NCBI GenBank assembly: GCA_947305585.1
Contig: CAMZDY010000001.1
Location: forward strand, 17,599 to 81,598
Source of the DNA: an uncultured Verrucomicrobiota bacterium
GTDB taxonomy: Bacteria; Verrucomicrobiota; Kiritimatiellia; RFP12; UBA1067
Length of the DNA: 64,000 bases
Direction: 5' to 3'
The notes beneath the pieces were generated by a model. That model saw nothing but the letters and a program-made list of their open reading frames with translations. It searched no databases and was not told where the DNA came from. The position numbers were made by a program, and so were the translations under genes. Below are positions 1,267-12,421 of the stretch, piece after piece (position 1 is the first letter of the stretch; each line of letters starts with the position of its first letter).

Positions 1267-1392
1267 TTACTCCGTGATGTAGTCGTATTCCTCGGGCGTG
1301 ATGGTGCCGTCGCGCAGCATCTCCTTTACGCGCTCCAGGGTGATGCGTCCGGCTTTGTACAGCCGCTTGATGGATTCCACGTGCGCTCTCAT
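1267..1392 (-). CDS. xkdX: XkdX-family phage micro-protein, 41 aa (MRAHVESIKRLYKAGRITLERVKEMLRDGTITPEEYDYITE)
   Basis: Hand-translated; absent from the track because it is under 60 aa. Its C-terminal motif resembles the XkdX family found beside tail-fibre genes. Its ATG overlaps the stop of the upstream ORF. Confidence 0.45.
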   Translation of the reverse strand: MRAHVESIKRLYKAGRITLERVKEMLRDGTITPEEYDYITE

Positions 1393-1652
1393 ATCACGCC
1401 CTCCTCGATGAGTTGCAAAGTGTAGTCATCGATAACCTCGGCCTCCCGCCGGGCTGCCGACTCTTGCGCGCCGACGTACGCCGCGTACTGCGTTTCGGAC
1501 ATTATCGCCGATTCGCCGCACCACACCGTGACGCCATCCCGCTCGACCGCCTCGACCTTGCGCGTGACGCGCACCATCTTGCCTTTCAGCGCTTCGACGC
1601 GCGAGGGCTTCATGTTCCACTCCGCCAGCTTGAATTCGGCTTGATAATTCAT
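1389..1652 (-). CDS. Hypothetical 87-aa protein translationally coupled to the DGR reverse transcriptase; possible DGR accessory protein
   Basis: Start MNYQAEFK... sits at 1650-1652 and overlaps the RT stop (1649-1651). No recognisable domain. Confidence 0.35.
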   Translation of the reverse strand: MNYQAEFKLAEWNMKPSRVEALKGKMVRVTRKVEAVERDGVTVWCGESAIMSETQYAAYVGAQESAARREAEVIDDYTLQLIEEGVI

Positions 1653-2779
1653 GCCGCAAGTCTCCTCTCTTTCTGGTTGCGCATTGCTACCTTGCGGCGC
1701 ATCAGCGCGAAATTGATGCCGCAAAGGATGCATCTCGGGAACGCGGCATAACTCCCGAAAGCGCGGAACCTTCCGCCGTAAGAAATGAGTCGCTCCGCAT
1801 CGTACGCCGTGACGCGGATATGCTTGGCGAGCTTGCGCCGGATGTTCGCCCCCAGGCGCCTCGAGCGAATAAATACTTTGTCGCGGATCGAGAGCCGCGC
1901 GTGGGTGAAGTGGAAGCCGGTGAAGCGCACTTTTGCCGTGCCGCCACGACCGAAGCGGAAGATGGCAGCGGTCAGTTTAAGCCGCATATCCATCCGGCCG
2001 ATCCGGCGCGCCACTTCGTTTACCGTTTTTTTCAGTTCCCGCCGGTTGGTGTGAATAAATAGCATATCGTCGATATATCGCACGTAGACCTCGACGCAAT
2101 CCTTGACGGCATGGTCGTTTCGTGTGAGCGCAATATTGACGAACCAGGGACTCGTAAACAGCCCGATCGGCACTCCCCCCGTCAGCACCTCGCCGTCCGG
2201 GAGCTCGATTTTGTTCGCGTCTAGGATGAGCCGTACGATATTGAGCACCTTCCGGTCGCGGATTTTGCGGGCGATAGCCCGGTAGATTTCCGCTGTGGAG
2301 ATGGTCTGGAAGCACTTTTTGATGTCCAGCACCGCGCACCACTTGAGCGCCTTTCCGCCCTGGGCCACCTTTTTCATGATATGCTTGGCCATCGCTTCCT
2401 GGCCGCGCCCGGGGATCGAACCGCATGACCATTCGAAAAAGCCCGGCTGGAATATCGGCTGGATGATGTGATCGATGAGCAGATGGTGGATGATTTGCTC
2501 GTCGAAGTCCGGCTCCACAATGATGCGCTTTTTGCGCGCGATGCCATCGGCGAAGACGCGACCCCTGCGCACTTCCGGCGGGCGCCATTCGTCGCGCTCC
2601 AACATTCCCTTGATTCGGCAAACGGTGGCAGATACGTCCGCAAGCGCCGCGATCATGGCGGCCTTCTTGCGCTTGCCCTTGGCGGCGCGATAGATGGCAT
2701 CCTCGATGTTGTCGGGGTCTACCATCTTCTGCCATAGATTGTTATAACTTTTCGCCATCTTCGTCTTTGCCTTTTTCAT
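1649..2779 (-). CDS. DGR reverse transcriptase, 376 aa
   Basis: YIDD catalytic motif (VRYIDDMLF) and a GVPIGLFTSP motif of the DGR-type IGxxxSQ/P class. Lies immediately downstream of the TR. Start MKKAKTK preceded by AGGAG; the track's longer N-terminal extension was rejected. Confidence 0.8.
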   Translation of the reverse strand: MKKAKTKMAKSYNNLWQKMVDPDNIEDAIYRAAKGKRKKAAMIAALADVSATVCRIKGMLERDEWRPPEVRRGRVFADGIARKKRIIVEPDFDEQIIHHLLIDHIIQPIFQPGFFEWSCGSIPGRGQEAMAKHIMKKVAQGGKALKWCAVLDIKKCFQTISTAEIYRAIARKIRDRKVLNIVRLILDANKIELPDGEVLTGGVPIGLFTSPWFVNIALTRNDHAVKDCVEVYVRYIDDMLFIHTNRRELKKTVNEVARRIGRMDMRLKLTAAIFRFGRGGTAKVRFTGFHFTHARLSIRDKVFIRSRRLGANIRRKLAKHIRVTAYDAERLISYGGRFRAFGSYAAFPRCILCGINFALMRRKVAMRNQKERRLAA

Positions 2780-2927
2780 CTCCTCTTGCCTTCCTATGGG
2801 CTCGCGCGCTTTGTGGCTTTTAGCCCTACTTGCACGCTCCTTCCTCCGCTTTCGCGGATTGTCGCCCGATTTTCCGGGGTTGCCCCCGCGCGGAAATGGC
2901 AAGATATTAGTTTGAATTGATTATTCC

Positions 2928-3059
2928 ATAGGAATGCGAAGCGCCAATGTTCCAGTTCGCGTTCGAGGGGGCGTTGTTCAAGTTCGAGGCAAAGAGGCCG
3001 GCCGTGATGCCGTTCGTGACATTGCCGCCGCAGTTGAGCGCACGCACGCCAGAGGCGAA
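2928..3059 (-). repeat. DGR template repeat (TR), 132 bp, Asn(AAC)-rich
   Basis: Identical to 3184-3315 except at 14 positions, all of them A on the minus (coding) strand. Translates as ...NCGGNVTNGITAGLFASNLNNAPSNANWNIG... Confidence 0.85.
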
Positions 3060-3144
3060 AGCGGAACACCCGCCAAAACTTCTCACCAATCCCTTGTATT
3101 CATCTGTTTTTCTCCTTTTGTTTACTTCAAAATCTTTTAGCTCT

Positions 3145-3166
3145 CTAGGGGGTTAGCACCCCCTAG
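3145..3166 (-). promoter_or_regulatory. GC-rich hairpin (CTAGGGGG-ttagca-CCCCCTAG) just 3' of the VR; candidate DGR target-recognition hairpin
   Basis: 8-bp perfect G/C stem, 6-nt loop. Sits between the target gene stop (3172-3174) and the TR-proximal spacer. Confidence 0.5.
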
Positions 3167-3171
3167 GACCC

Positions 3172-4854
3172 CTAGAAGGCATGATAGGAAGGCGAAGCGC
3201 CAACGCTCCAGTACGCGTCCGAGGGGGCGCTGCACAAGTTCGAGGCAAAGAGGCCGGCCGTGAAGCCGTTCGGGACAGAGCCGCCGCAGGAGAGCGCACG
3301 CACGCCAGAGGCGAACCATGCTGCGTCGCAGAAATTGGTGGACGACGACCCGCCCGCGACACTAGGCAGCATCGCCACCAGATGGTCGAAGTGCATGTGC
3401 GTGATATAGACGCCAGACCCGCTCGTAGGCGACAGCGCATCCGTCTCGATGTACTTGCCGGCATAGTCGTCGTTGTCGCTTGACAGCCACACCGCCGTCT
3501 TGGAACCATCAATCATCGAGGGCGTGAGCTTGACGAGAATCTGCCCGTTGTAGATGGTTGCGCCCACAGGTCGCCGCCACCGGTGGCCCCAGAGATTTTC
3601 CATATTGAGGAACTTGACGCCGGTGGCGACATTCTGCGAGCCGTCGAAGTACGCGCCCCAGAACGCCCCCTTGTCTTTCATTGAGCCGCAATTGATCTGC
3701 AGGCTTGACGCGCCGCTCACGTAAGTACCGCCGATAGCCGCTTGAGAATCAAGCGTGCGGGTCAGAAGCGGGAAGAGGAGCCGGATCATCATCTCGTCGG
3801 CCCAGGTGGTGGGCATCCAGTTGGCGCCGTTGTTGGTGCCGTAGGAAAGCTCCTGCGCTTGCGTGGTATTGTTGCTCGGCTTCGCGCCGGTAGCCATCGA
3901 GCGCAGCACGCTATTGACGACCGCGCCCTCGAAGAGCGGCCAGCCGCAGAAATCGGCGAAGGTGCCGTCGCTCTTCATGTGCGTCCAGCAGAACCAGTCT
4001 TCGGTTTTGCGTACGTTCGAGAATCGCACCTCCACGGTGGAGCCCGAACGGTGGATATGGCAGAAAATAGGCTTGACGATGTTCATCGCGTTGCCTTGAT
4101 ACGCGGTATTCGCGACATCGCTCGCCGTACCGTCCAGCTTTTCCGCCAGGTTGTCGGGATTGAGGTAGTAGTCGATCTCGCCGCCGAAGGTGAGCATGGC
4201 GGGCTTGAAATTCTCCTCGACCCAACTCTTCCATGATCCCCAATTGAGCGCCGGGGTGGATAGCGAGAAATCCATATAGATGGGGTTGAAGTCCTCGCTG
4301 TCCTCGATGTAGGTGATGCAGGTGGCCGGGTTTGTGTCCAGCTCGTCGAGCGCGTAGCCGAAAGTCCACACCGGCGTCGCCGCGAAGCAATTGTCGAGCG
4401 ATTCGTTGTAGAAGCCGCTCGTCGCATACGGGAAGGCGCGGTAGCGGCTGGACACGGTGCCGAGCGTGTCGAGGTATGGCGCGTTGAGGTATTGGTTGCG
4501 CACCGTCGAAGTGACGACCGTGCGGGCGTTGGCGTCGGTGGGCGACGCGGGATATTCGCCGTCGTCGCGCGCCATGATGACGGTGCGAGACCAGAACGCG
4601 GCCGCGACGCCGTAGATGGTGACGTCCGCCGGATCGTGCCATTTGAGGTTCACGCCGCCCGATACCACCTCCGCGATGTGGTACTTGACGGGATTGATGG
4701 GTGTAGCCTGCTGCTTGAGCGCGGCGACATCCGTCTTGATTTGGGTGACATCTGCCGCGACGCCCTGAAGGGTCGTTTCCTGTGCGACGCCCGTAAGGTC
4801 GGACGGGGTGGTGACTTGGGCGGTGGGTGAAAGCTGGTTGATTGGCGTTGGCAT
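3172..4854 (-). CDS. DGR target protein, 560 aa; phage receptor-binding / tail-fibre protein whose C-terminus is the VR
   Basis: The VR occupies the extreme C-terminus (...FCDAAWFASGVRALSCGGSVPNGFTAGLFASNLCSAPSDAYWSVGASPSYHAF). RBS AGGAG before the ATG. Lies next to the tail-fibre gene. Confidence 0.75.
   Translation of the reverse strand: MPTPINQLSPTAQVTTPSDLTGVAQETTLQGVAADVTQIKTDVAALKQQATPINPVKYHIAEVVSGGVNLKWHDPADVTIYGVAAAFWSRTVIMARDDGEYPASPTDANARTVVTSTVRNQYLNAPYLDTLGTVSSRYRAFPYATSGFYNESLDNCFAATPVWTFGYALDELDTNPATCITYIEDSEDFNPIYMDFSLSTPALNWGSWKSWVEENFKPAMLTFGGEIDYYLNPDNLAEKLDGTASDVANTAYQGNAMNIVKPIFCHIHRSGSTVEVRFSNVRKTEDWFCWTHMKSDGTFADFCGWPLFEGAVVNSVLRSMATGAKPSNNTTQAQELSYGTNNGANWMPTTWADEMMIRLLFPLLTRTLDSQAAIGGTYVSGASSLQINCGSMKDKGAFWGAYFDGSQNVATGVKFLNMENLWGHRWRRPVGATIYNGQILVKLTPSMIDGSKTAVWLSSDNDDYAGKYIETDALSPTSGSGVYITHMHFDHLVAMLPSVAGGSSSTNFCDAAWFASGVRALSCGGSVPNGFTAGLFASNLCSAPSDAYWSVGASPSYHAF
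3184..3315 (-). repeat. DGR variable repeat (VR), 132 bp, encoding the last ~44 aa of the target protein
   Basis: 14 mismatches to the TR, all at TR-adenine positions (24 adenines in the TR; 14 differ). The 3' ends of TR and VR diverge completely, as expected for an IMH-type boundary. Confidence 0.85.
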
Positions 4855-4865
4855 GATTGCTCCTT

Positions 4866-5924
4866 TTACTCGTTTGCGGGAATTGCGGGGAAGTTCGTGA
4901 CAGATCCGCCAAGGGCTTCGATACAGGCCTTGACGCCCGCGAAGATGCCCTGCATGGTGGCAAAGTCGAAAGTCTGTCCGGATAGCGGAGTGACGGACAC
5001 CCCCGCCACCTTGTCGTCAACATACTTCTTGTTCGCGACCTGCCCGTCGGCGGACTGGTCGGTGAGGTGCGGCGCTATCGGCGTGCCGGTGAACGCAGGC
5101 GACGCAAGCGGGGCGAATAGTTCGCTGACCATCTTCGCTTCCCAGTGCGTCGTATCGCTATCCGGCTTTAGGCTGGATGCCGTCGCGGTGTAGCCTGATT
5201 TGCACCGATAGACTACACCGTTGTATGTGCAAAGGTTATTCACCACATACATCTTCCTCGTGAACGCTGGCGCAATCTGCTGAACGGCGGTGTAGACGTC
5301 GGAGAGAAGGGCGAGAATGCCGCTGGCATAAGGCAGGGCTTGGAAGTGTCCGTCAATCGTGAAACCGTATAGCGCTATAGCGAGACCGTTTGTGTCGCCG
5401 CGCTTAGTTTGCAACCAAGCGTCACCATCGGGTGCGTCTCTGTCGATTATCAAACTACCGCTTAGCGTCTGGTTGCCCGTGTTGCCGAGCTTGCCCGACA
5501 GCGCCTGCGCCACCTGCCCAGTAGTCGCATACACCCCCAAATCCGGCGTGTTCGAAATTTCTGAATACGCATAGGTAGGCTTATTATCGGCCTTGGCCCA
5601 GGAGGGAACGGTGGGATCCGTTTCGGTGTGGAGATACCGCCCGTCACTCTCGCCCTTCGTAAAGTAATTGGTCAGGCTCTGGTGCTCTTGCAATGCCGTC
5701 GCGCCCAGCGCCGCGCCCGACCGGATCGTCTGCAGGTCGCTGATCACATCCTGCTTCCCGGTCTTGAGCGTCACGATATCGGCTGCGTTGGTGGCGATCT
5801 GTATACGATTCTCCGCAATCGCCGCCGTATTCGTGCCGATCTCCGCCTCCAGCGCGCCGTCCTGCCGGTCCACATACTCCTTGGTGGCCGTTATGGCCAG
5901 CACTATCGCGAGTATCCAATTCAT
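4866..5924 (-). CDS. Phage tail-fibre / collar-like protein, 352 aa
   Basis: N-terminal hydrophobic or coiled-coil region; Gly/Thr/Ser-rich fibrous composition. Immediately upstream of the DGR target. Confidence 0.5.
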   Translation of the reverse strand: MNWILAIVLAITATKEYVDRQDGALEAEIGTNTAAIAENRIQIATNAADIVTLKTGKQDVISDLQTIRSGAALGATALQEHQSLTNYFTKGESDGRYLHTETDPTVPSWAKADNKPTYAYSEISNTPDLGVYATTGQVAQALSGKLGNTGNQTLSGSLIIDRDAPDGDAWLQTKRGDTNGLAIALYGFTIDGHFQALPYASGILALLSDVYTAVQQIAPAFTRKMYVVNNLCTYNGVVYRCKSGYTATASSLKPDSDTTHWEAKMVSELFAPLASPAFTGTPIAPHLTDQSADGQVANKKYVDDKVAGVSVTPLSGQTFDFATMQGIFAGVKACIEALGGSVTNFPAIPANE

Positions 5925-8377: not shown

Positions 8378-9439
8378 TTATGCCCCCGTCACGACCGAAG
8401 CCGTGGCCGAAGAATTGTAAACGATCGCGAACTGGCCCACCGGGTTGCGGCAAGCGAGACGCAAAATCGCCTCGTGATAGCCGCGCGGACCGCCGCCACG
8501 GTCGGGCAGATCGAACGCGGTCAGCGATTCCAGCGTGTCGATCGACCAGAATTCCGGACGGATCACCACGCCGGACTGGAAGCACTCCGCTCCCTGCGTG
8601 ATTGCGCTGCCGTTGTTCGGCAACGTCGCGTTCAGCGTATTGCACACGAGCGACTTGAGCGTCACGCCGTCGTAGGTGAACTCGTCGCAGATGAGCTCGA
8701 TCTTGCGCGACTTCGGTTCGGTGCGCTGGATGAGGTTGGTGAATCCGCTCACCGTCTCCGCCTTGCCGAGGAAGTTGCTCATCGCCTGCTTGAGGTCGAT
8801 GCCGCACAGCATCGTCAGCTGCAGCTCTCCGTCGCCCGCCTGCTTGGCCGCCGCCGTGAGCGCACGCTTGAGCTCCGCTTCGGTCAAGAGCGCCGCCTTG
8901 GTGGAGATGCCGATCGTCGGCATGATCGCCGAGGGAATCGGCTGCACCAAGTGCGTGCTCGTCGAGAGCCAGCTCATCATGCCGCGCGTCTTCGCCACGG
9001 TCGAATCGCTCGTTCCGCGCGCCACCGCTTCCTGGGCGGAACCGAGCGCAAACTCGATCGAGCGCGCCACCTCTTCCGCGTCCTTGCGTATGGCGCGTGC
9101 CAACGCCGCCTCGCCCTTCTTTTCGGTGTAGCCCGGCAAGAGCTTCGTTTCGCGCGTCACGAGGTAGCCGCGCTTCGAGCGGAACTTCTGCGCCTGGATC
9201 TGCATCACCAGATTCGTGCGCTTGGCGAGGCCGGTCTCGTCGAAGTCGCCGCCTTCGACCGCACCTAGTTCGTAGGCGGGCGTATCGCCCTCCACTTCCA
9301 CCTCCTGCATCCAGCCGACGGGAGTCGGTCCGCGACGCAAGATCGCCTGGATCTTCATGTTGCGCCGAAAAGCCTTGATTACTTTGTCGTAGTAATCGTT
9401 GATCTTCAGCGCATGGTCAACTGTATAAAAACCACCCAT
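8378..9439 (-). CDS. Putative major capsid protein, 353 aa
   Basis: Right size and position after the scaffold-like gene, with a terminator after it. The track's plus-strand ORF 8474-9268 is its antisense shadow. Confidence 0.5.
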   Translation of the reverse strand: MGGFYTVDHALKINDYYDKVIKAFRRNMKIQAILRRGPTPVGWMQEVEVEGDTPAYELGAVEGGDFDETGLAKRTNLVMQIQAQKFRSKRGYLVTRETKLLPGYTEKKGEAALARAIRKDAEEVARSIEFALGSAQEAVARGTSDSTVAKTRGMMSWLSTSTHLVQPIPSAIMPTIGISTKAALLTEAELKRALTAAAKQAGDGELQLTMLCGIDLKQAMSNFLGKAETVSGFTNLIQRTEPKSRKIELICDEFTYDGVTLKSLVCNTLNATLPNNGSAITQGAECFQSGVVIRPEFWSIDTLESLTAFDLPDRGGGPRGYHEAILRLACRNPVGQFAIVYNSSATASVVTGA

Positions 9440-10191
9440 TATTTCTTTTTCTTTCTCCGCCTTGCCGCTATGAGATACTGGTCGAGATCATCGGGTTCTT
9501 CCACCTCGACGTCCTCCGTTCTCTCCGCGTTCGCGGGCGGTTTGGTTCTGCTCCGGTTGGGAGCGTCGCCTGGTTTCGGTTTCTTGCCCTTCGGAGTCTT
9601 CCCGTCCGGCTTCCAGCCTTGCTTTTTGGCCTTGAGCCCCAACGTGTAGATCTCCTTTACCTCCGCTTCCAGTTCCGCCCGGCGCTGGCCGAACTTCCCC
9701 TTCAGCTTCTCCTGGATTTCCTCCAGTTCGTCGATTCGTTCGAGCACTTCCGCGTACGTCATGGACTTGCCATCGCCGATCTCGTATTCGTCGGCCTTGT
9801 CGTGGACTCTCGTCCAGCGCGTGTAGGCTTTGATTACGCCCGGCAGCTGATCCATTTGCGCAAACGCGCTCGCCTCCTCTTTCGACATGAGGCCGGGTAG
9901 GATGCCCGTCACCTCAGCGGCGCGCAAAATGGCCTTGCCATCGTCGCCCGCGAGCGTCTGCGCCTCTTTCAACTTGTCCTGGAGCTCCTTTTTCTCCTGG
10001 ACCAGCTTCCGGATGCGAGCATTCGCTCCTTTCCCCTCTTCGAGTTCGTCGTCCTCGTCTTCGTCGTCGCCCGTGTCATCCTCGTCGCCGGTGTCGGTTT
10101 CCGGTTCCTCCACCTCCTCCGGGGTTTCTTCGGGTTCCTCGTTTTCGAGGTCTTCGGTCTCTTCAGGTATGTCGTCGTTGTTGTTTCCCAT
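9439..10191 (-). CDS. Scaffold-like protein, 250 aa, extremely acidic with a Lys-rich C-terminus
   Basis: N-terminal DE-rich tract, a coiled-coil-like middle and a KKKK tail. Sits between the large terminase and the capsid gene. Confidence 0.45.
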   Translation of the reverse strand: MGNNNDDIPEETEDLENEEPEETPEEVEEPETDTGDEDDTGDDEDEDDELEEGKGANARIRKLVQEKKELQDKLKEAQTLAGDDGKAILRAAEVTGILPGLMSKEEASAFAQMDQLPGVIKAYTRWTRVHDKADEYEIGDGKSMTYAEVLERIDELEEIQEKLKGKFGQRRAELEAEVKEIYTLGLKAKKQGWKPDGKTPKGKKPKPGDAPNRSRTKPPANAERTEDVEVEEPDDLDQYLIAARRRKKKK

Positions 10192-10291
10192 GTTGTTCCT
10201 TTGGCGGTTTGTTGAGGTGGGTTCGCCAGCCCCCAGGTTGACGCCGACTGCCTTTTTACGAGTTCTGGGAATGCGGCGCTATTCCCGCTCG

Positions 10292-10320
10292 ACGGCCCTA
10301 TTATATCATTTCCTGCCGTG
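10292..10320 (-). promoter_or_regulatory. Extended -10 promoter (TGATATAAT on minus) for the scaffold/capsid operon, with an upstream ACGGCAGGAAA element
   Basis: Minus strand reads ACGGCAGGAAATGATATAATAGG. The 18-nt core recurs at the int promoter (25475-25492). Confidence 0.4.
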
Positions 10321-10384
10321 AGCGCGGAACCGGTTTCCGCCGCTTTAAGTCTTTTTCCTGTCTATATAGACAGCTTTCCGGCCT

Positions 10385-12421
10385 CTACCACCATATTCTC
10401 GACCGTCTGGGCACCCCTGCGCGCCCCGGCGCTCTCGCCTGGACCTCGTGCTTTTCCGTCTCCGTCGCTGCCGTATATTCCGTAATCCCGCTCAAAACCC
10501 CGTACCGTATCAGGTCGATGAAATCCTTTACCGCGCCCTTCTGCCCGTCCGCCCCGGTGTACGTCTCGAGCGCGAATATCGTGTTCACGCACTCCTCGGA
10601 AATCTTTATCCTATCCCTCGCCAGCATGTCCCGTATTAGATTCAGCCCCTCGGCGATCGCCTGCCCGCTCGCCGGTTGGAATCCCTCCGCCAGCTTGCTT
10701 ACGTCCTCGAAGAGGCTTACGCTCGATCCGGCATGGATCTTCGACTGGCTCGCCGCCCGGCTGTCGATCACCCGGAACTCGATCTCCTCCTCCGTCCCGT
10801 CCGACTCGCTCCAGTTCTCCAGCTCCTCCCAATCCTTGCACTGCGCCATCGCCCCGTGCTTCTCCGCCCAATCCCGCCAATTCCGCCATCCCTCCAGTCT
10901 CGCCCACTCGAATTTGTAATTGAGGTAGCCGAAATTGAAACTCTCCGTCGCCTCGCCGCGCTCGCCGTCGTTGATCCCGCCCTTCCAGTCGCTCGCCACC
11001 GCCCACGGCCCCGGATACCCCACGCCCGGTATCTCGTAAGGCCCCGGCCACTCCCGGTATGCGTACAGCGTCTTCGTTTCCGGATCCCACCCCATATAGA
11101 GGAATGCCCAATTCCGCTCCGGTGCCGGATCGAGCACCATAATCCGCACCAGTTTTTCCGGTATCTCCTCTTTCTTCACCACGTGCCGCTCGCGCCGGAA
11201 CTCCGGCAACATCCGACCCTTCACCCGCTCGGCTATCCCGTAAACGCGCGTCTTTATGCTTTTCGCGGCGTTCTTGTTCGCCGCCGCCTTGGCAATGACT
11301 TCCGCCGGATTTCCGTACGGATTGTCTCGTCCATAAAACCAAACAACCGCTGCTTCTCCCCCGCGTGCAACGCCAATTCGCGGAGTGCGCTCGAATCTCC
11401 GTCCTGCAGGAATCTCGTCAAAATCGTCACCTGCTCTTTCAGCGAGAATCCGTTCAATGATTTTCTCAGGTCGGGCTTCGGGGATTCCAATATCTCCCGG
11501 CGCACCTTCATTTCGCCACGCTCTAAGTTTCGTGTATTCATCTTCATCGAGTCCCAACTCCTTCCAGGGCATCGGCCGCCCCAAATCTTCCGGCAGCATC
11601 CACGCCGTATGCCACCTGGTAACCTTCAGTCCTTCCAGATAGTCCGCCACCACCGGCGTCCACCCTTGGACCGGCGTAAAGCTGCAGATCATCGTGCCGC
11701 GCGTATCGGCAAGACGGAATCTCGCGCTTTCCAGGAACGCTTTCAGAAACTCCTCGTCCAGCCACACCAGATTGAGGCTCTGCCCCTCGAACACGTTGGC
11801 TGGATTCATCTCGTAGCTGATGAACCGCGCGTTCGATCCGTTCCCGAAGGTGATCTTCGAGTTCGAGAATCCGTTCTGCTTCGTATAGCTGATCTGCTCG
11901 TTCACGTCCCGGTTCCGCGCCAGCGCCACGTTCTTCGCCTTGTATTCGTTCGGCATGTAATGCCAGATTCGCGGCATCTGCACGTCCTTGCTCGTCGGCA
12001 GGCTCTGGGATCCCACATACACCGTCTTCTGTCCCTGCATCAATGTCTCGATCGTCAACCTCGACGCAAAGTCCGTTTTCCCGCTCCGGTTCGCCCCCAT
12101 GAGCAGTATCTCCCCCACCGGATGCTTGAACCCCAGCGCCGACCGCATCTTCGCCGCAAACTCCTCCCAGGCGAGATTGTATCTTTTCTCGATGTACTTC
12201 CGCTCCTGCTCGTTCGGCAGCGTATTTCGCATCAGCGCTTTCGTCACGTACCAGATTTCCGGCTCGTAGCCAAAGTGATACGGATCCTCCTTCGCCTCCT
12301 GGATTTTCCGCGCCCGCAGTTTTTCCAACACCTCGGCCGCCCGGGCCGCGGCCAAGCCCTTTACCGACGCGAATGCCTGCACCTGCTCGCCCGACGCCGG
12401 TTGATAGTAGGCGTCTCTCAC
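10385..12421 (-). CDS. terL: Terminase large subunit, 678 aa
   Basis: Walker A (GANRSGKT) and Walker B (LVWLDEEF), plus a nuclease-type C-terminal half. Confidence 0.75.
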   Translation of the reverse strand: MRDAYYQPASGEQVQAFASVKGLAAARAAEVLEKLRARKIQEAKEDPYHFGYEPEIWYVTKALMRNTLPNEQERKYIEKRYNLAWEEFAAKMRSALGFKHPVGEILLMGANRSGKTDFASRLTIETLMQGQKTVYVGSQSLPTSKDVQMPRIWHYMPNEYKAKNVALARNRDVNEQISYTKQNGFSNSKITFGNGSNARFISYEMNPANVFEGQSLNLVWLDEEFLKAFLESARFRLADTRGTMICSFTPVQGWTPVVADYLEGLKVTRWHTAWMLPEDLGRPMPWKELGLDEDEYTKLRAWRNEGAPGDIGIPEARPEKIIERILAERAGDDFDEIPAGRRFERTPRIGVARGGEAAVVWFYGRDNPYGNPAEVIAKAAANKNAAKSIKTRVYGIAERVKGRMLPEFRRERHVVKKEEIPEKLVRIMVLDPAPERNWAFLYMGWDPETKTLYAYREWPGPYEIPGVGYPGPWAVASDWKGGINDGERGEATESFNFGYLNYKFEWARLEGWRNWRDWAEKHGAMAQCKDWEELENWSESDGTEEEIEFRVIDSRAASQSKIHAGSSVSLFEDVSKLAEGFQPASGQAIAEGLNLIRDMLARDRIKISEECVNTIFALETYTGADGQKGAVKDFIDLIRYGVLSGITEYTAATETEKHEVQARAPGRAGVPRRSRIWW

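Follow-up and report, generated by a model that had tools for sequence, protein, structure and literature searches.

Diversity-generating retroelements (DGRs) have been catalogued in the tens of thousands, with many among them from gut phages, and about 74% include avd. To our knowledge, all mechanistic work on DGRs has used the Avd-dependent Bordetella element. In that element, carried by phage BPP-1 and ordered mtd-VR / avd / TR / Sp / brt (VR, variable repeat; TR, template repeat), the reverse transcriptase (RT) is inactive without Avd, RT residue Q187 contacts the incoming dNTP, and the DGR RNA includes cis-priming and 'cPRT stop' elements (bioRxiv 10.1101/2023.10.23.563531). A hairpin downstream of the VR is required for homing in BPP-1 (PMC3240598).

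Avd is not universal, as DGRs of Architecture A lack it (PMC5758913). The Avd-less 'Architecture A1' accounts for 29% of 372 curated DGRs, has a core of target, TR and RT on a single strand, lacks avd, HRDC and MSL genes, and was inferred by its authors to undergo Avd-independent homing (Wu et al. 2018, PMC5758913). Two further points of reference are: (i) the RT-10 motif of Rfam, an RNA situated between the TR and RT of DGRs with a presumed role as primer or scaffold for reverse transcription (Weinberg et al. 2017, PMC5737381), and (ii) TaqVP of Thermus aquaticus (PDB 5VF4), a DGR variable protein with its variable residues in a C-terminal domain of C-type-lectin fold.

The locus described here resides in a 64,000-nt stretch of DNA (the window) of a gut Kiritimatiellia bacterium (GCA_947305585.1, contig CAMZDY010000001.1). 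It is read, with a probability of about 93%, as an intact DGR of the Avd-less 'target-VR / TR / RT' architecture on a prophage integrated in the Kiritimatiellia chromosome, a location to be added to the first-pass annotation. By core organisation the element belongs with the known Architecture A. It shares with BPP-1: (i) adenine-specific transfer of information from TR to VR, (ii) a tail-protein gene whose 3' end holds the VR and whose product has a variable domain of C-type-lectin type, (iii) downstream of the VR, a GC-rich hairpin that has a 4-nt loop, (iv) a structured spacer RNA between TR and RT, with a TR 3' end predicted to pair with the spacer beside a spacer adenosine, (v) a predicted long-range duplex that brackets the TR, and (vi) an RT that aligns with bRT over its full length. 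The system is of a well-known type and, with its standard AAY-rich TR, lectin-fold target and hairpin after the VR, is ordinary as a DGR; its lineage is Avd-less and has its own conserved RNA. What it offers is a clean, compact and recently active example of the Avd-less architecture, together with the record of a prophage that bears a DGR in the Kiritimatiellia, gut bacteria that have been little studied. The cassette spans approximately 3.9 kb; no promoter or terminator calls were obtained for it. Gut prophages of Kiritimatiellia, Gastranaerophilales, Bacillota and others carry DGRs of the same Avd-less lineage.

The repeat pair and its target

A repeat search of the window returned a single direct repeat pair of 132 nt, the TR (2928-3059) and the VR (3184-3315), with 89% identity and a spacing of 256 nt; these and all other features of the cassette lie on the minus strand. 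Base-by-base comparison exactly reproduced the 14 differences of the first-pass annotation, which fall at TR positions 2935, 2948, 2950, 2957, 2963, 2974, 2977, 2978, 3008, 3017, 3022, 3023, 3034 and 3035. At each of the 14, the TR has T on the plus strand (A on the minus strand) and the VR has C, A or G (plus strand), so the mismatches stay confined to TR adenines upon realignment and take up 14 of the 24 present, an outcome with a probability of 7.2e-13 if 14 mismatches were placed at random. All 24 adenines occupy codon position 1 or 2, nine AAY codons are counted in the VR frame (in agreement with the Asn-rich TR first noted), and the codon design is such that no adenine substitution can create a stop codon. 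Similarity between the repeats ends abruptly on both sides when the alignment is extended, and the sharp divergence noted earlier at the repeat end was thereby borne out. Position 2935, the mismatch closest to the 3' end, is substituted in all VRs of 22 lineages; instead of a random hit, it may be the first base to be templated or a fixed IMH/IMH* difference. A TR/VR pair of this A-only kind is found just upstream of the RT in approximately 100 of 144 related RT loci.

The VR encodes residues 514-557 of a 560-aa tail protein (3172..4854; phrog_5302 'tail protein', E 5e-59), consistent with its earlier placement in the last ~44 residues. The tail-fibre-like gene immediately upstream (4866..5924) encodes a 352-aa protein with weak tail-fibre matches (phrog_2631, 7032 and 8713, E ~5e-6) and a sub-threshold match to CBM_5_12; the 3' 249 nt of this gene fall inside the block that the window has in common with three related loci (L001-L003) at 97.5% identity. 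The C-type-lectin fold that had been expected of the target C-terminus is supported: an AlphaFold2 model of the target (pLDDT 90.6, pTM 0.88) was searched against the PDB with Foldseek, and TaqVP 5VF4 chains were the sole matches at E<=0.001 (E 7.6e-11, prob 1.00). The two proteins differ in that sequence identity is 14-15%, TaqVP is a bacterial protein while the window target is a phage tail protein, and TMq is 0.34 because the window target has large extra N-terminal beta domains. Mtd (1YU0-4) is a weaker match to the model than TaqVP and, as a whole chain, bears weak structural similarity to the target; Pfam Mtd_N is present in one target homolog. Position and fold suggest a receptor-binding role for the modelled protein.

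Downstream of the VR is a hairpin- or cruciform-forming inverted repeat (3145..3166; CTAGGGGGT-GCTA-ACCCCCTAG) with a 9-bp stem and 4-nt loop, which starts 18 nt past the VR and 6 nt past the stop codon. A stem of 9 bp was reached in none of 100 shuffles. Of 89 unique related loci, 69 have a G-run/C-run hairpin of at least 7 bp, mostly with a 4-nt loop, that lies 18-38 nt past the VR. The abrupt repeat boundary, as at an IMH, and the GC-rich hairpin are as known for DGRs, and the hairpin fits the BPP-1 element (PMC3240598), except that the loop is GCTA rather than the GRNA of BPP-1, a mismatch to the consensus at position 2.

The reverse transcriptase

The RT gene (1649..2758) encodes 369 aa and most likely starts at ATG 2758, to judge from the sequences of homologs that likewise begin MAKSYNN; ATG 2779 is an alternative start. 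The earlier start at 2902, a TTG that opens a mechanically called reading frame, is less likely. The protein matches RVT_1 (E 1.4e-19) and phrog_1423 (E 3e-68). When a profile of the RT family is compared with the PDB, the Bordetella-phage bRT (8ub7) is the best match (E 8e-42), ahead of group II RTs (2e-31) and retron RTs (1e-13), as anticipated for an RT of the DGR clade; with the single sequence as query, by contrast, group II RTs score marginally above bRT. DGR-clade membership of the RT that adjoins the TR is, thus, supported by the family profile, phrog_1423 and the A-only repeats of its relatives. Every match to NCBIfam models is far below its cut-off.

The reading frame is intact, and the catalytic Asp residues, the YIDD motif noted earlier and all invariant residues of the family are conserved. 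Motif 4 reads P-I-G-L-F-T-S-P in the window and close relatives, with Pro where bRT has Q187 (S-P versus S-Q). The first-pass label of a 'DGR-type GxxxSP' motif is imprecise, as the canonical form is [LIV]GxxxSQ; the diagnostic Ile is present here, as is the Gly, and the terminal Gln is replaced. Distant members of the same RT family (P0035-P0046) retain the canonical IGxxxSQ; the IGxxxSP form is a derived state within the DGR clade and no argument against DGR membership.

Other RT-bearing elements were considered. A group II intron was rejected, as no GIIM/maturase domain is present, the TIGR04416 score of 98 bits falls short of the cut-off (300), and no intron RNA appears in Rfam scans. Retrons and defence RTs (DRT, Abi) were also rejected: NCBIfam retron and Drt scores are far below cut-offs, PADLOC matches reflect generic RT similarity, and no retron RNA is found in Rfam.

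Spacer RNA, proposed homing mechanism and candidate accessory genes

Between TR and RT is a conserved structured RNA (2782..2908), the DGR 'spacer' RNA, described by a covariance model (R1) that has a single match in each of 76 of 100 sources, on the strand of the RT and ending at the RT start. Its elements in the window are helices H1 (2875-2888, GCAA loop), H2 (2846-2857, GAAA loop) and H5 (2815-2825), and pairings P3 (2864-2867:2798-2801) and P4 (2832-2837:2804-2809). In the R1 alignment, 94.9% of cells are paired; shuffles reach 68%, and slid partners give 33-44%. Compensatory changes occur in 16 of 20 pairs. A 501-nt query (2700-3200) had no match among 4227 Rfam families, RT-n families included, even at E<=10. 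Although similar in position and presumed role to RT-10, the TR-RT spacer RNA of BPP-1, the RNA is a family distinct from RT-10 in sequence and structure.

Two pairings that involve the TR are predicted, both of which covary, and parallel the 'cPRT stop' and cis-priming elements of the BPP-1 DGR RNA (bioRxiv 10.1101/2023.10.23.563531). The putative long-range duplex that brackets the TR joins an upstream strand (3081..3088; TGGTGAGA) to a spacer strand (2897-2904; TCTTGCCA). In the window alone its 8 bp are not above chance (81 of 200 shuffles). Among close relatives the duplex covaries (GGTAAGA:TCTTACC, GACAAGA:TCTTGTC and GGTGAGACG:TGTCTCATC), and distant loci have equivalents of 9-14 bp with unrelated sequences. 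The putative template:primer duplex pairs the TR 3' end (2926..2934; TTCCTATGG) with a spacer primer strand (2791-2799; CCATAGGAA). Duplexes of this kind of at least 8 bp are found in 26 of 48 unique loci; in 22 of these 26 the TR base immediately 5' of the duplex differs from the VR, and in 21 it is A. The pairings predict the cis-priming site, with adenine 2935, just 5' of the TR strand, as the first templated base in the window, whereas this base is G in BPP-1.

From these features a homing cycle is proposed. The TR (3059-2928) would be transcribed together with the structured spacer RNA (2908-2782). On the evidence of covariation and of the Bordetella-phage mechanism, the long-range duplex 3088-3081 / 2904-2897 would bracket the TR, the TR 3' end (2934-2926) would pair with the spacer segment CCAUAGGAA (2799-2791), and a spacer adenosine at approximately 2791 would act as cis-primer beside TR A2935. 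The RT (2758-1649) would then make cDNA of the TR that is faithful except opposite adenines, as indicated indirectly by the A-only pattern. By analogy with BPP-1, the 3' end of the tail-protein gene would receive the cDNA in place of the VR (3315-3184), with the GC-rich hairpin (3166-3145) as an aid to targeting. Diversification would affect 15 A-containing codons, of which 14 are seen to vary, and could yield up to ~1.6e14 variants of what is probably the ligand-binding face of the C-type-lectin-like tip of the tail protein; a change in host-receptor specificity is the presumed purpose. Directly testable hypotheses for how an RT may function without Avd follow from the bracketing duplex, the conserved RNA and the adenosine predicted to prime.

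The accessory gene avd is missing from the cassette. No Avd-like Pfam match was detected in the ORFs of the cassette or in neighbouring genes called in relatives, and no Avd-like ORF in the VR-TR gaps of relatives; the VR-TR gap of the window, 124 nt, is too short to hold avd. As the BPP-1 RT needs Avd, the Bordetella biochemical mechanism is not simply transferable to this element. What takes its place, if anything does, is viewed in two ways that turn on a conserved acidic ORF of 87 aa (pI 4.8; 1389..1652), which may be an accessory factor or, instead, a gene of the tail module.

The chances are about even that the 87-aa ORF stands outside the DGR, as a tail-fibre-module gene (a chaperone or an XkdW-position protein) that is merely syntenic, with the RT working with RNA alone or host factors. 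The ORF is followed by a 41-aa XkdX-like ORF (1267..1392) that overlaps its stop codon and is of a kind typical of tail-fibre modules; this last gene of the shared cassette block ends where homology with L001-L003 ends (1267), and its orthologs in L001 and L006 carry Pfam Phage_XkdX. The 87-aa protein is acidic, whereas Avd binds nucleic acid and is not acidic, and one related locus (L151) has a non-homologous 97-aa ORF at the same position. Conserved neighbours of DGRs may, as cautioned (PMC5758913), be phage genes. Arguing for a tie to the DGR, the ORF start overlaps the RT stop codon, the ORF adjoins the RT down to ~30% RT identity and across different phage backbones, and the homologs found were beside DGR RTs only, with none in deposited phages. 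The ORF has no detectable relation to the acidic CH1 of Architecture A1, which is 160-169 aa (PMC5758913).

A bolder proposal, which we consider doubtful, is that the Avd-less lineage runs a distinct, Avd-independent form of mutagenic retrohoming in which the lineage-specific RNA scaffolds and cis-primes the reaction, which starts on the template adenine substituted in every VR examined, and in which Avd is replaced as RT cofactor by the 87-aa acidic protein, whose translation is coupled to that of the RT. If so, the natural Q187-to-P change would show that Q187 is dispensable for adenine-specific infidelity. A small system of two or three components (RNA, RT and perhaps the 87-aa protein) would suit tools for targeted mutagenesis in vivo.

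Natural variation and recent activity

The first-pass annotation held that the element has been active, and natural variation among related loci agrees. The TR is 100% identical in the window and L001-L003, while the surrounding block differs by 2-3%. The VR of the window differs from that of L001-L003 at 14 positions, all of them TR-adenine sites. Divergence is, thus, 10.6% in the VR compared to 0% in the TR, 0.6% in the spacer RNA and 0.6-2.4% in neighbouring segments, as expected of VR turnover against an invariant TR. Two target proteins (P0053 and P0167) agree at all 516 residues that lie outside the VR but differ at 11 of the 44 that it encodes, in each case at an A-containing TR codon. 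As these targets are isogenic outside the VR and yet carry different VRs, the lineage has, on this sequence comparison, been active very recently.

That the element is a fossil, once active but now inert in this genome, with TR/VR differences that are historical, is highly improbable. Such a state would fit the missing Avd, the non-canonical motif 4 and the finding that L001, L002 and L003, from three samples, have one common VR. The shared VR implies that turnover is slow enough for different samples to have the same VR. Against inertness, the RT is intact with all of its invariant residues, the TR and spacer RNA are the least diverged parts of the block, different VRs sit on otherwise isogenic targets, and A-only VR divergence prevails throughout the Avd-less family. 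An alternative in which part of a gene was duplicated in the ordinary way (with decay of a copy, or gene conversion) and lies by chance beside an unrelated group II intron, retron or defence RT can be dismissed. The marginal single-sequence preference for group II RTs and the sub-threshold RT matches to group II, retron and DRT models weigh little against mismatches of which all 14 fall on a single base in one of the copies, a pattern that recurs in ~100 related loci, and a profile that places bRT first by 10 orders of magnitude.

Deposited phages contain no close relative of the cassette. The closest RT in deposited phage genomes is that of Lactobacillus phage LBR48, which aligns over 94% of the window RT with 29% identity. 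RTs of the same family in Levilactobacillus prophages are accompanied by A-only TR/VR pairs and by a match to the spacer-RNA model.

Adenine-directed repeats in a minus-strand cassette

The window carries a bona fide, recently active diversity-generating retroelement (DGR) of the known Avd-less architecture. The cassette is encoded on the minus strand and opens with a tail-fibre-like gene (5924-4866), followed by the gene of the 560-aa target protein (4854-3172), of which residues 514-557 are encoded by the variable repeat (VR), a perfect hairpin with a 9-bp stem and 4-nt loop (3166-3145) and the template repeat (TR, 3059-2928). A conserved 127-nt RNA element (2908-2782) lies between the TR and the gene of the 369-aa reverse transcriptase (RT, 2758-1649), whose start, MAKSYNN, matches that of its homologs. 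An 87-aa ORF (1652-1389) overlaps the RT stop, and a 41-aa XkdX-like ORF (1392-1267) is last in order. A scan for promoters and terminators returned signals at or below shuffle expectation. The 124-nt VR-TR gap includes a strong Shine-Dalgarno-like AAAGGAG and an ATG (3101-3119, minus strand) that open just a 6-codon mini-ORF; a similar RBS-ATG is present in L004, a related locus. The mini-ORF overlaps a match to the Rfam model 'freshwater-2' (3101-3182), which is sub-threshold (22.8 bits vs a gathering score of 49.9) and is judged to be chance.

A repeat search of the region detects a single pair of direct repeats (2928-3059 and 3184-3315) of 132 nt, 89% identity and 256-nt spacing, with no second VR in the window. 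Compared base by base, the two copies differ at exactly 14 positions, all of which are T on the plus strand, and hence A on the coding (minus) strand, of the 2928-3059 copy, while the VR holds any of the three other bases at these sites. If mismatches fell at random, the chance of all 14 landing on one of the 24 adenines of the TR would be P = 7e-13. The coordinates, repeat length, mismatch count and adenine count of the first-pass annotation are all correct on this recount. Homology between TR and VR breaks off sharply at both ends. Read in the VR frame, all 24 TR adenines occupy codon position 1 or 2 and nine codons are AAY; no substitution can create a stop codon, and about 1.6e14 protein variants are possible from the TR adenines.

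The same design is widespread among relatives. When one uniform repeat detector was applied to 144 loci encoding RT relatives (27-98% identity), about 100 showed, immediately upstream of the RT, a pair of repeats of 90-132 nt with all or nearly all mismatches at adenines of the RT-proximal copy. In three distantly related loci (L015, L018 and L019, at about 3536-3757 each), a wider VR-TR gap contains a third, degenerate repeat copy, which can be read as a VR-like peptide and is perhaps what remains of a TR or VR. Distant target homologs were considered as RT-less contexts, and none proved to be so: L151 and L152 share the architecture, and L150 stops at a contig edge.

Reverse transcriptase and accessory genes

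The RT is assigned to the DGR type by its family profile. Used as a single sequence, the RT scores about equally against bRT, the RT of the Bordetella phage BPP-1 DGR, and against fragments of group II RTs. When 38 members of its family are combined in a profile, 8ub7 ranks first among solved structures (E 8e-42, full length); it beats group II RTs by ten orders of magnitude and is identified as the Bordetella-phage bRT (bioRxiv 10.1101/2023.10.23.563531) because the residue numbering of I181, G182 and Q187 agrees. Clustering with retron or group II RTs, which had been named as evidence against a DGR, is not favoured: the group II model reaches 98 bits vs a cut-off of 300, NCBIfam and PADLOC give sub-threshold generic RT matches only, and domain and Rfam scans of the RT and cassette find neither a maturase domain nor an RNA of group II introns or retrons. 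Motif 4 reads PIGLFTSP in the window RT and close relatives. The GxxxSP within it had been taken for a DGR-type motif but is not the DGR signature; since distant members of the same RT family keep the canonical IGxxxSQ, GxxxSP is a derived state. The nearest RT among deposited phage genomes, that of Lactobacillus phage LBR48, is 29% identical, and the nearest genome-derived relative, in a 'Verrucomicrobia' MAG, is 56% identical. Related loci in genomes and viral contigs were found only with the family alignment as query; the single RT sequence confirmed none.

No Avd-like protein, the accessory protein of BPP-1, is encoded in the cassette or its relatives. Some relatives have a wider VR-TR gap that might have encoded an Avd-like ORF; this idea was rejected, as the gaps contain only spurious ORFs or a third copy of the repeat in degenerate form. 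This architecture is already known, as Architecture A (Avd-less) accounts for 29% of 372 curated DGRs, for which an Avd-independent mechanism is inferred (Wu et al. 2018, PMC5758913). The acidic 87-aa ORF (pI 4.8) comes immediately after the RT in 32 loci, among them some with an RT identity as low as about 30%, and its homologs are RT-adjacent in every context examined. Its structural model (pLDDT 80) is a beta4 fold with a long helix and has no significant fold match; Pfam and NCBIfam return nothing, and tblastn against deposited phages gives no match. Two roles are conceivable for the ORF: it may act as a DGR cofactor that stands in for Avd, or it may belong to the tail module. Of secondary interest in this element are this RT-coupled ORF, the S-P variant of motif 4 and an uncatalogued family of spacer RNAs in which a priming site is predicted.

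Spacer RNA and predicted priming site

The TR-RT interval (2908-2782) is strongly conserved and, on the minus strand, forms two GNRA-capped hairpins and the nested helices P3, P4 and H5. Thirteen sequences were used to build a covariance model, which matches 76 of 100 sources (the window and 75 related loci), once each, on the RT strand and with its end at the RT start. The resulting alignment is itself fitted to the model; pairing is seen in 94.9% of its cells vs 68% for shuffles and 33-44% for slid partners, and 16 of 20 pairs show compensatory changes. Rfam has no family for this RNA at E<=10 (2700-3200), RT-n motifs included, among them RT-10, which is the BPP-1 spacer (Weinberg et al. 2017, PMC5737381); at gathering score, the whole window matches no relevant family. 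The element looks like a lineage-specific spacer RNA of Avd-less DGRs.

Two longer-range pairings join the element to the TR. A predicted bracket duplex, 8 bp long in the window, pairs 3088-3081, upstream of the TR, with 2904-2897, where the element has its 5' end; close relatives show covariation in this duplex, and distant loci form it from unrelated sequences of 9-14 bp. The second duplex pairs the TR 3' end (2934-2926) with the conserved 3' end of the element (2799-2791); of 48 unique loci, 26 have it with a length of at least 8 bp. In 22 of these 26, TR and VR disagree at the TR base that immediately precedes the duplex on its 5' side (A in 21 of the TRs; C in 13, T in 8 and G in 1 of the VRs); the spacer nucleotide that closes the duplex is A in 19. 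The geometry matches that of the cis-priming TR:Sp (spacer) duplex and 'cPRT stop' duplex of BPP-1; thus, the priming adenosine is predicted to lie near 2791 and A2935 to be the first templated base. Among the TR adenines that are changed in the VR, the one at position 2935 (3191 in the VR) lies closest to the 3' end and directly abuts the TR:spacer duplex on its 5' side; the equivalent adenine is substituted in every VR examined (22 lineages). It may be the base that is templated first and always misincorporated, or the difference may be a selected one between IMH and IMH*. Hairpin H2 is complementary to the TR 5' boundary over 11-12 nt, but this pairing was set aside, as it is not kept in relatives.

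None of 100 shuffles equals the hairpin that follows the target gene (3166-3145). In 69 of 89 unique loci, a hairpin whose stem pairs a G-run with a C-run over at least 7 bp, in most cases around a 4-nt loop, lies 18-38 nt beyond the VR, in agreement with the description of phage DGRs by Guo et al. (2011, PMC3240598).

Target variation, cassette exchange and prophage context

The target is assigned to PHROG tail proteins (E 5e-59), while Pfam and NCBIfam return nothing. Its AlphaFold2 model (45-sequence alignment, pLDDT 90.6, pTM 0.88) has just three PDB matches at E<=0.001, all chains of TaqVP, the DGR variable protein of Thermus aquaticus; variants of Mtd, the BPP-1 target, rank lower. The fold prediction, proposed earlier as a check, thus matches a DGR variable protein, and we infer a receptor-binding role.

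Recent activity is evident from close relatives. A 3.85-kb block of the window (5114-1267) recurs at 97.5% identity in three metagenome contigs (L001-L003); it comprises the tail-fibre end, target, TR, RT, 87-aa ORF and XkdX-like ORF. Within the block, divergence is 0 in the TR, 0.6% in the TR-RT spacer, 10.6% in the VR and 1.5-6% in the rest, and all 14 VR differences fall at TR-adenine positions. The target cluster at 90% identity has three sequences, across whose VRs 14 of 15 A-containing codons vary; two target proteins, P0053 and P0167, have no difference over the 516 residues beyond the VR, against 11 over the 44 that the VR encodes. An invariant VR beside a varying TR had been named as contrary evidence, and the opposite is seen: the TR is invariant and the VR hypervariable at A sites. 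RT profile, target fold and VR variation agree in supporting the first-pass reading of an active DGR. L001-L003 do not share the phage genes that flank the block in the window, and their own flanking genes are unrelated to these at the DNA level; therefore, the DGR and tail tip move as a module between phage backbones.

The left 25 kb of the window is prophage, including a DnaB-like helicase, while the right 38 kb, from about 25.6 kb (25642-64000), is bacterial chromosome with carB, mutS, gyrB, ftsW, xseA, nusB, a Sel1-repeat protein and a GH35 beta-galactosidase with an F5/8 type C domain. Protein clusters at 90% identity or more around carB, GH35 and ftsW include NCBI entries labelled Kiritimatiellia bacterium (MAG), and on this basis the chromosome is assigned to Kiritimatiellia; an exact look-up of gyrB finds no record. 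The DGR phage is thus integrated as a prophage in a gut lineage that has been little studied. No deposited phage matches 1-12000 in megablast, an exact 28-mer of the TR/VR core is absent from IMG/VR, and a tRNA scan finds no tRNA genes. The structural module (8378-12421, minus strand) is compact, with a terminase (12421-10385, weak Terminase_6N match), a 250-aa ORF, an SU10-type major capsid protein (9439-8378) and then a 694-aa ORF, a portal candidate free of any family match. Two related DGR phages (L005, 13176-14726; L006, 6614-8185 and 8667-9556), with backbones very different from that of the window prophage, encode a 516-523-aa protein with sigma-70 regions 2-4 and a >2800-aa protein with faint DUF285 matches.
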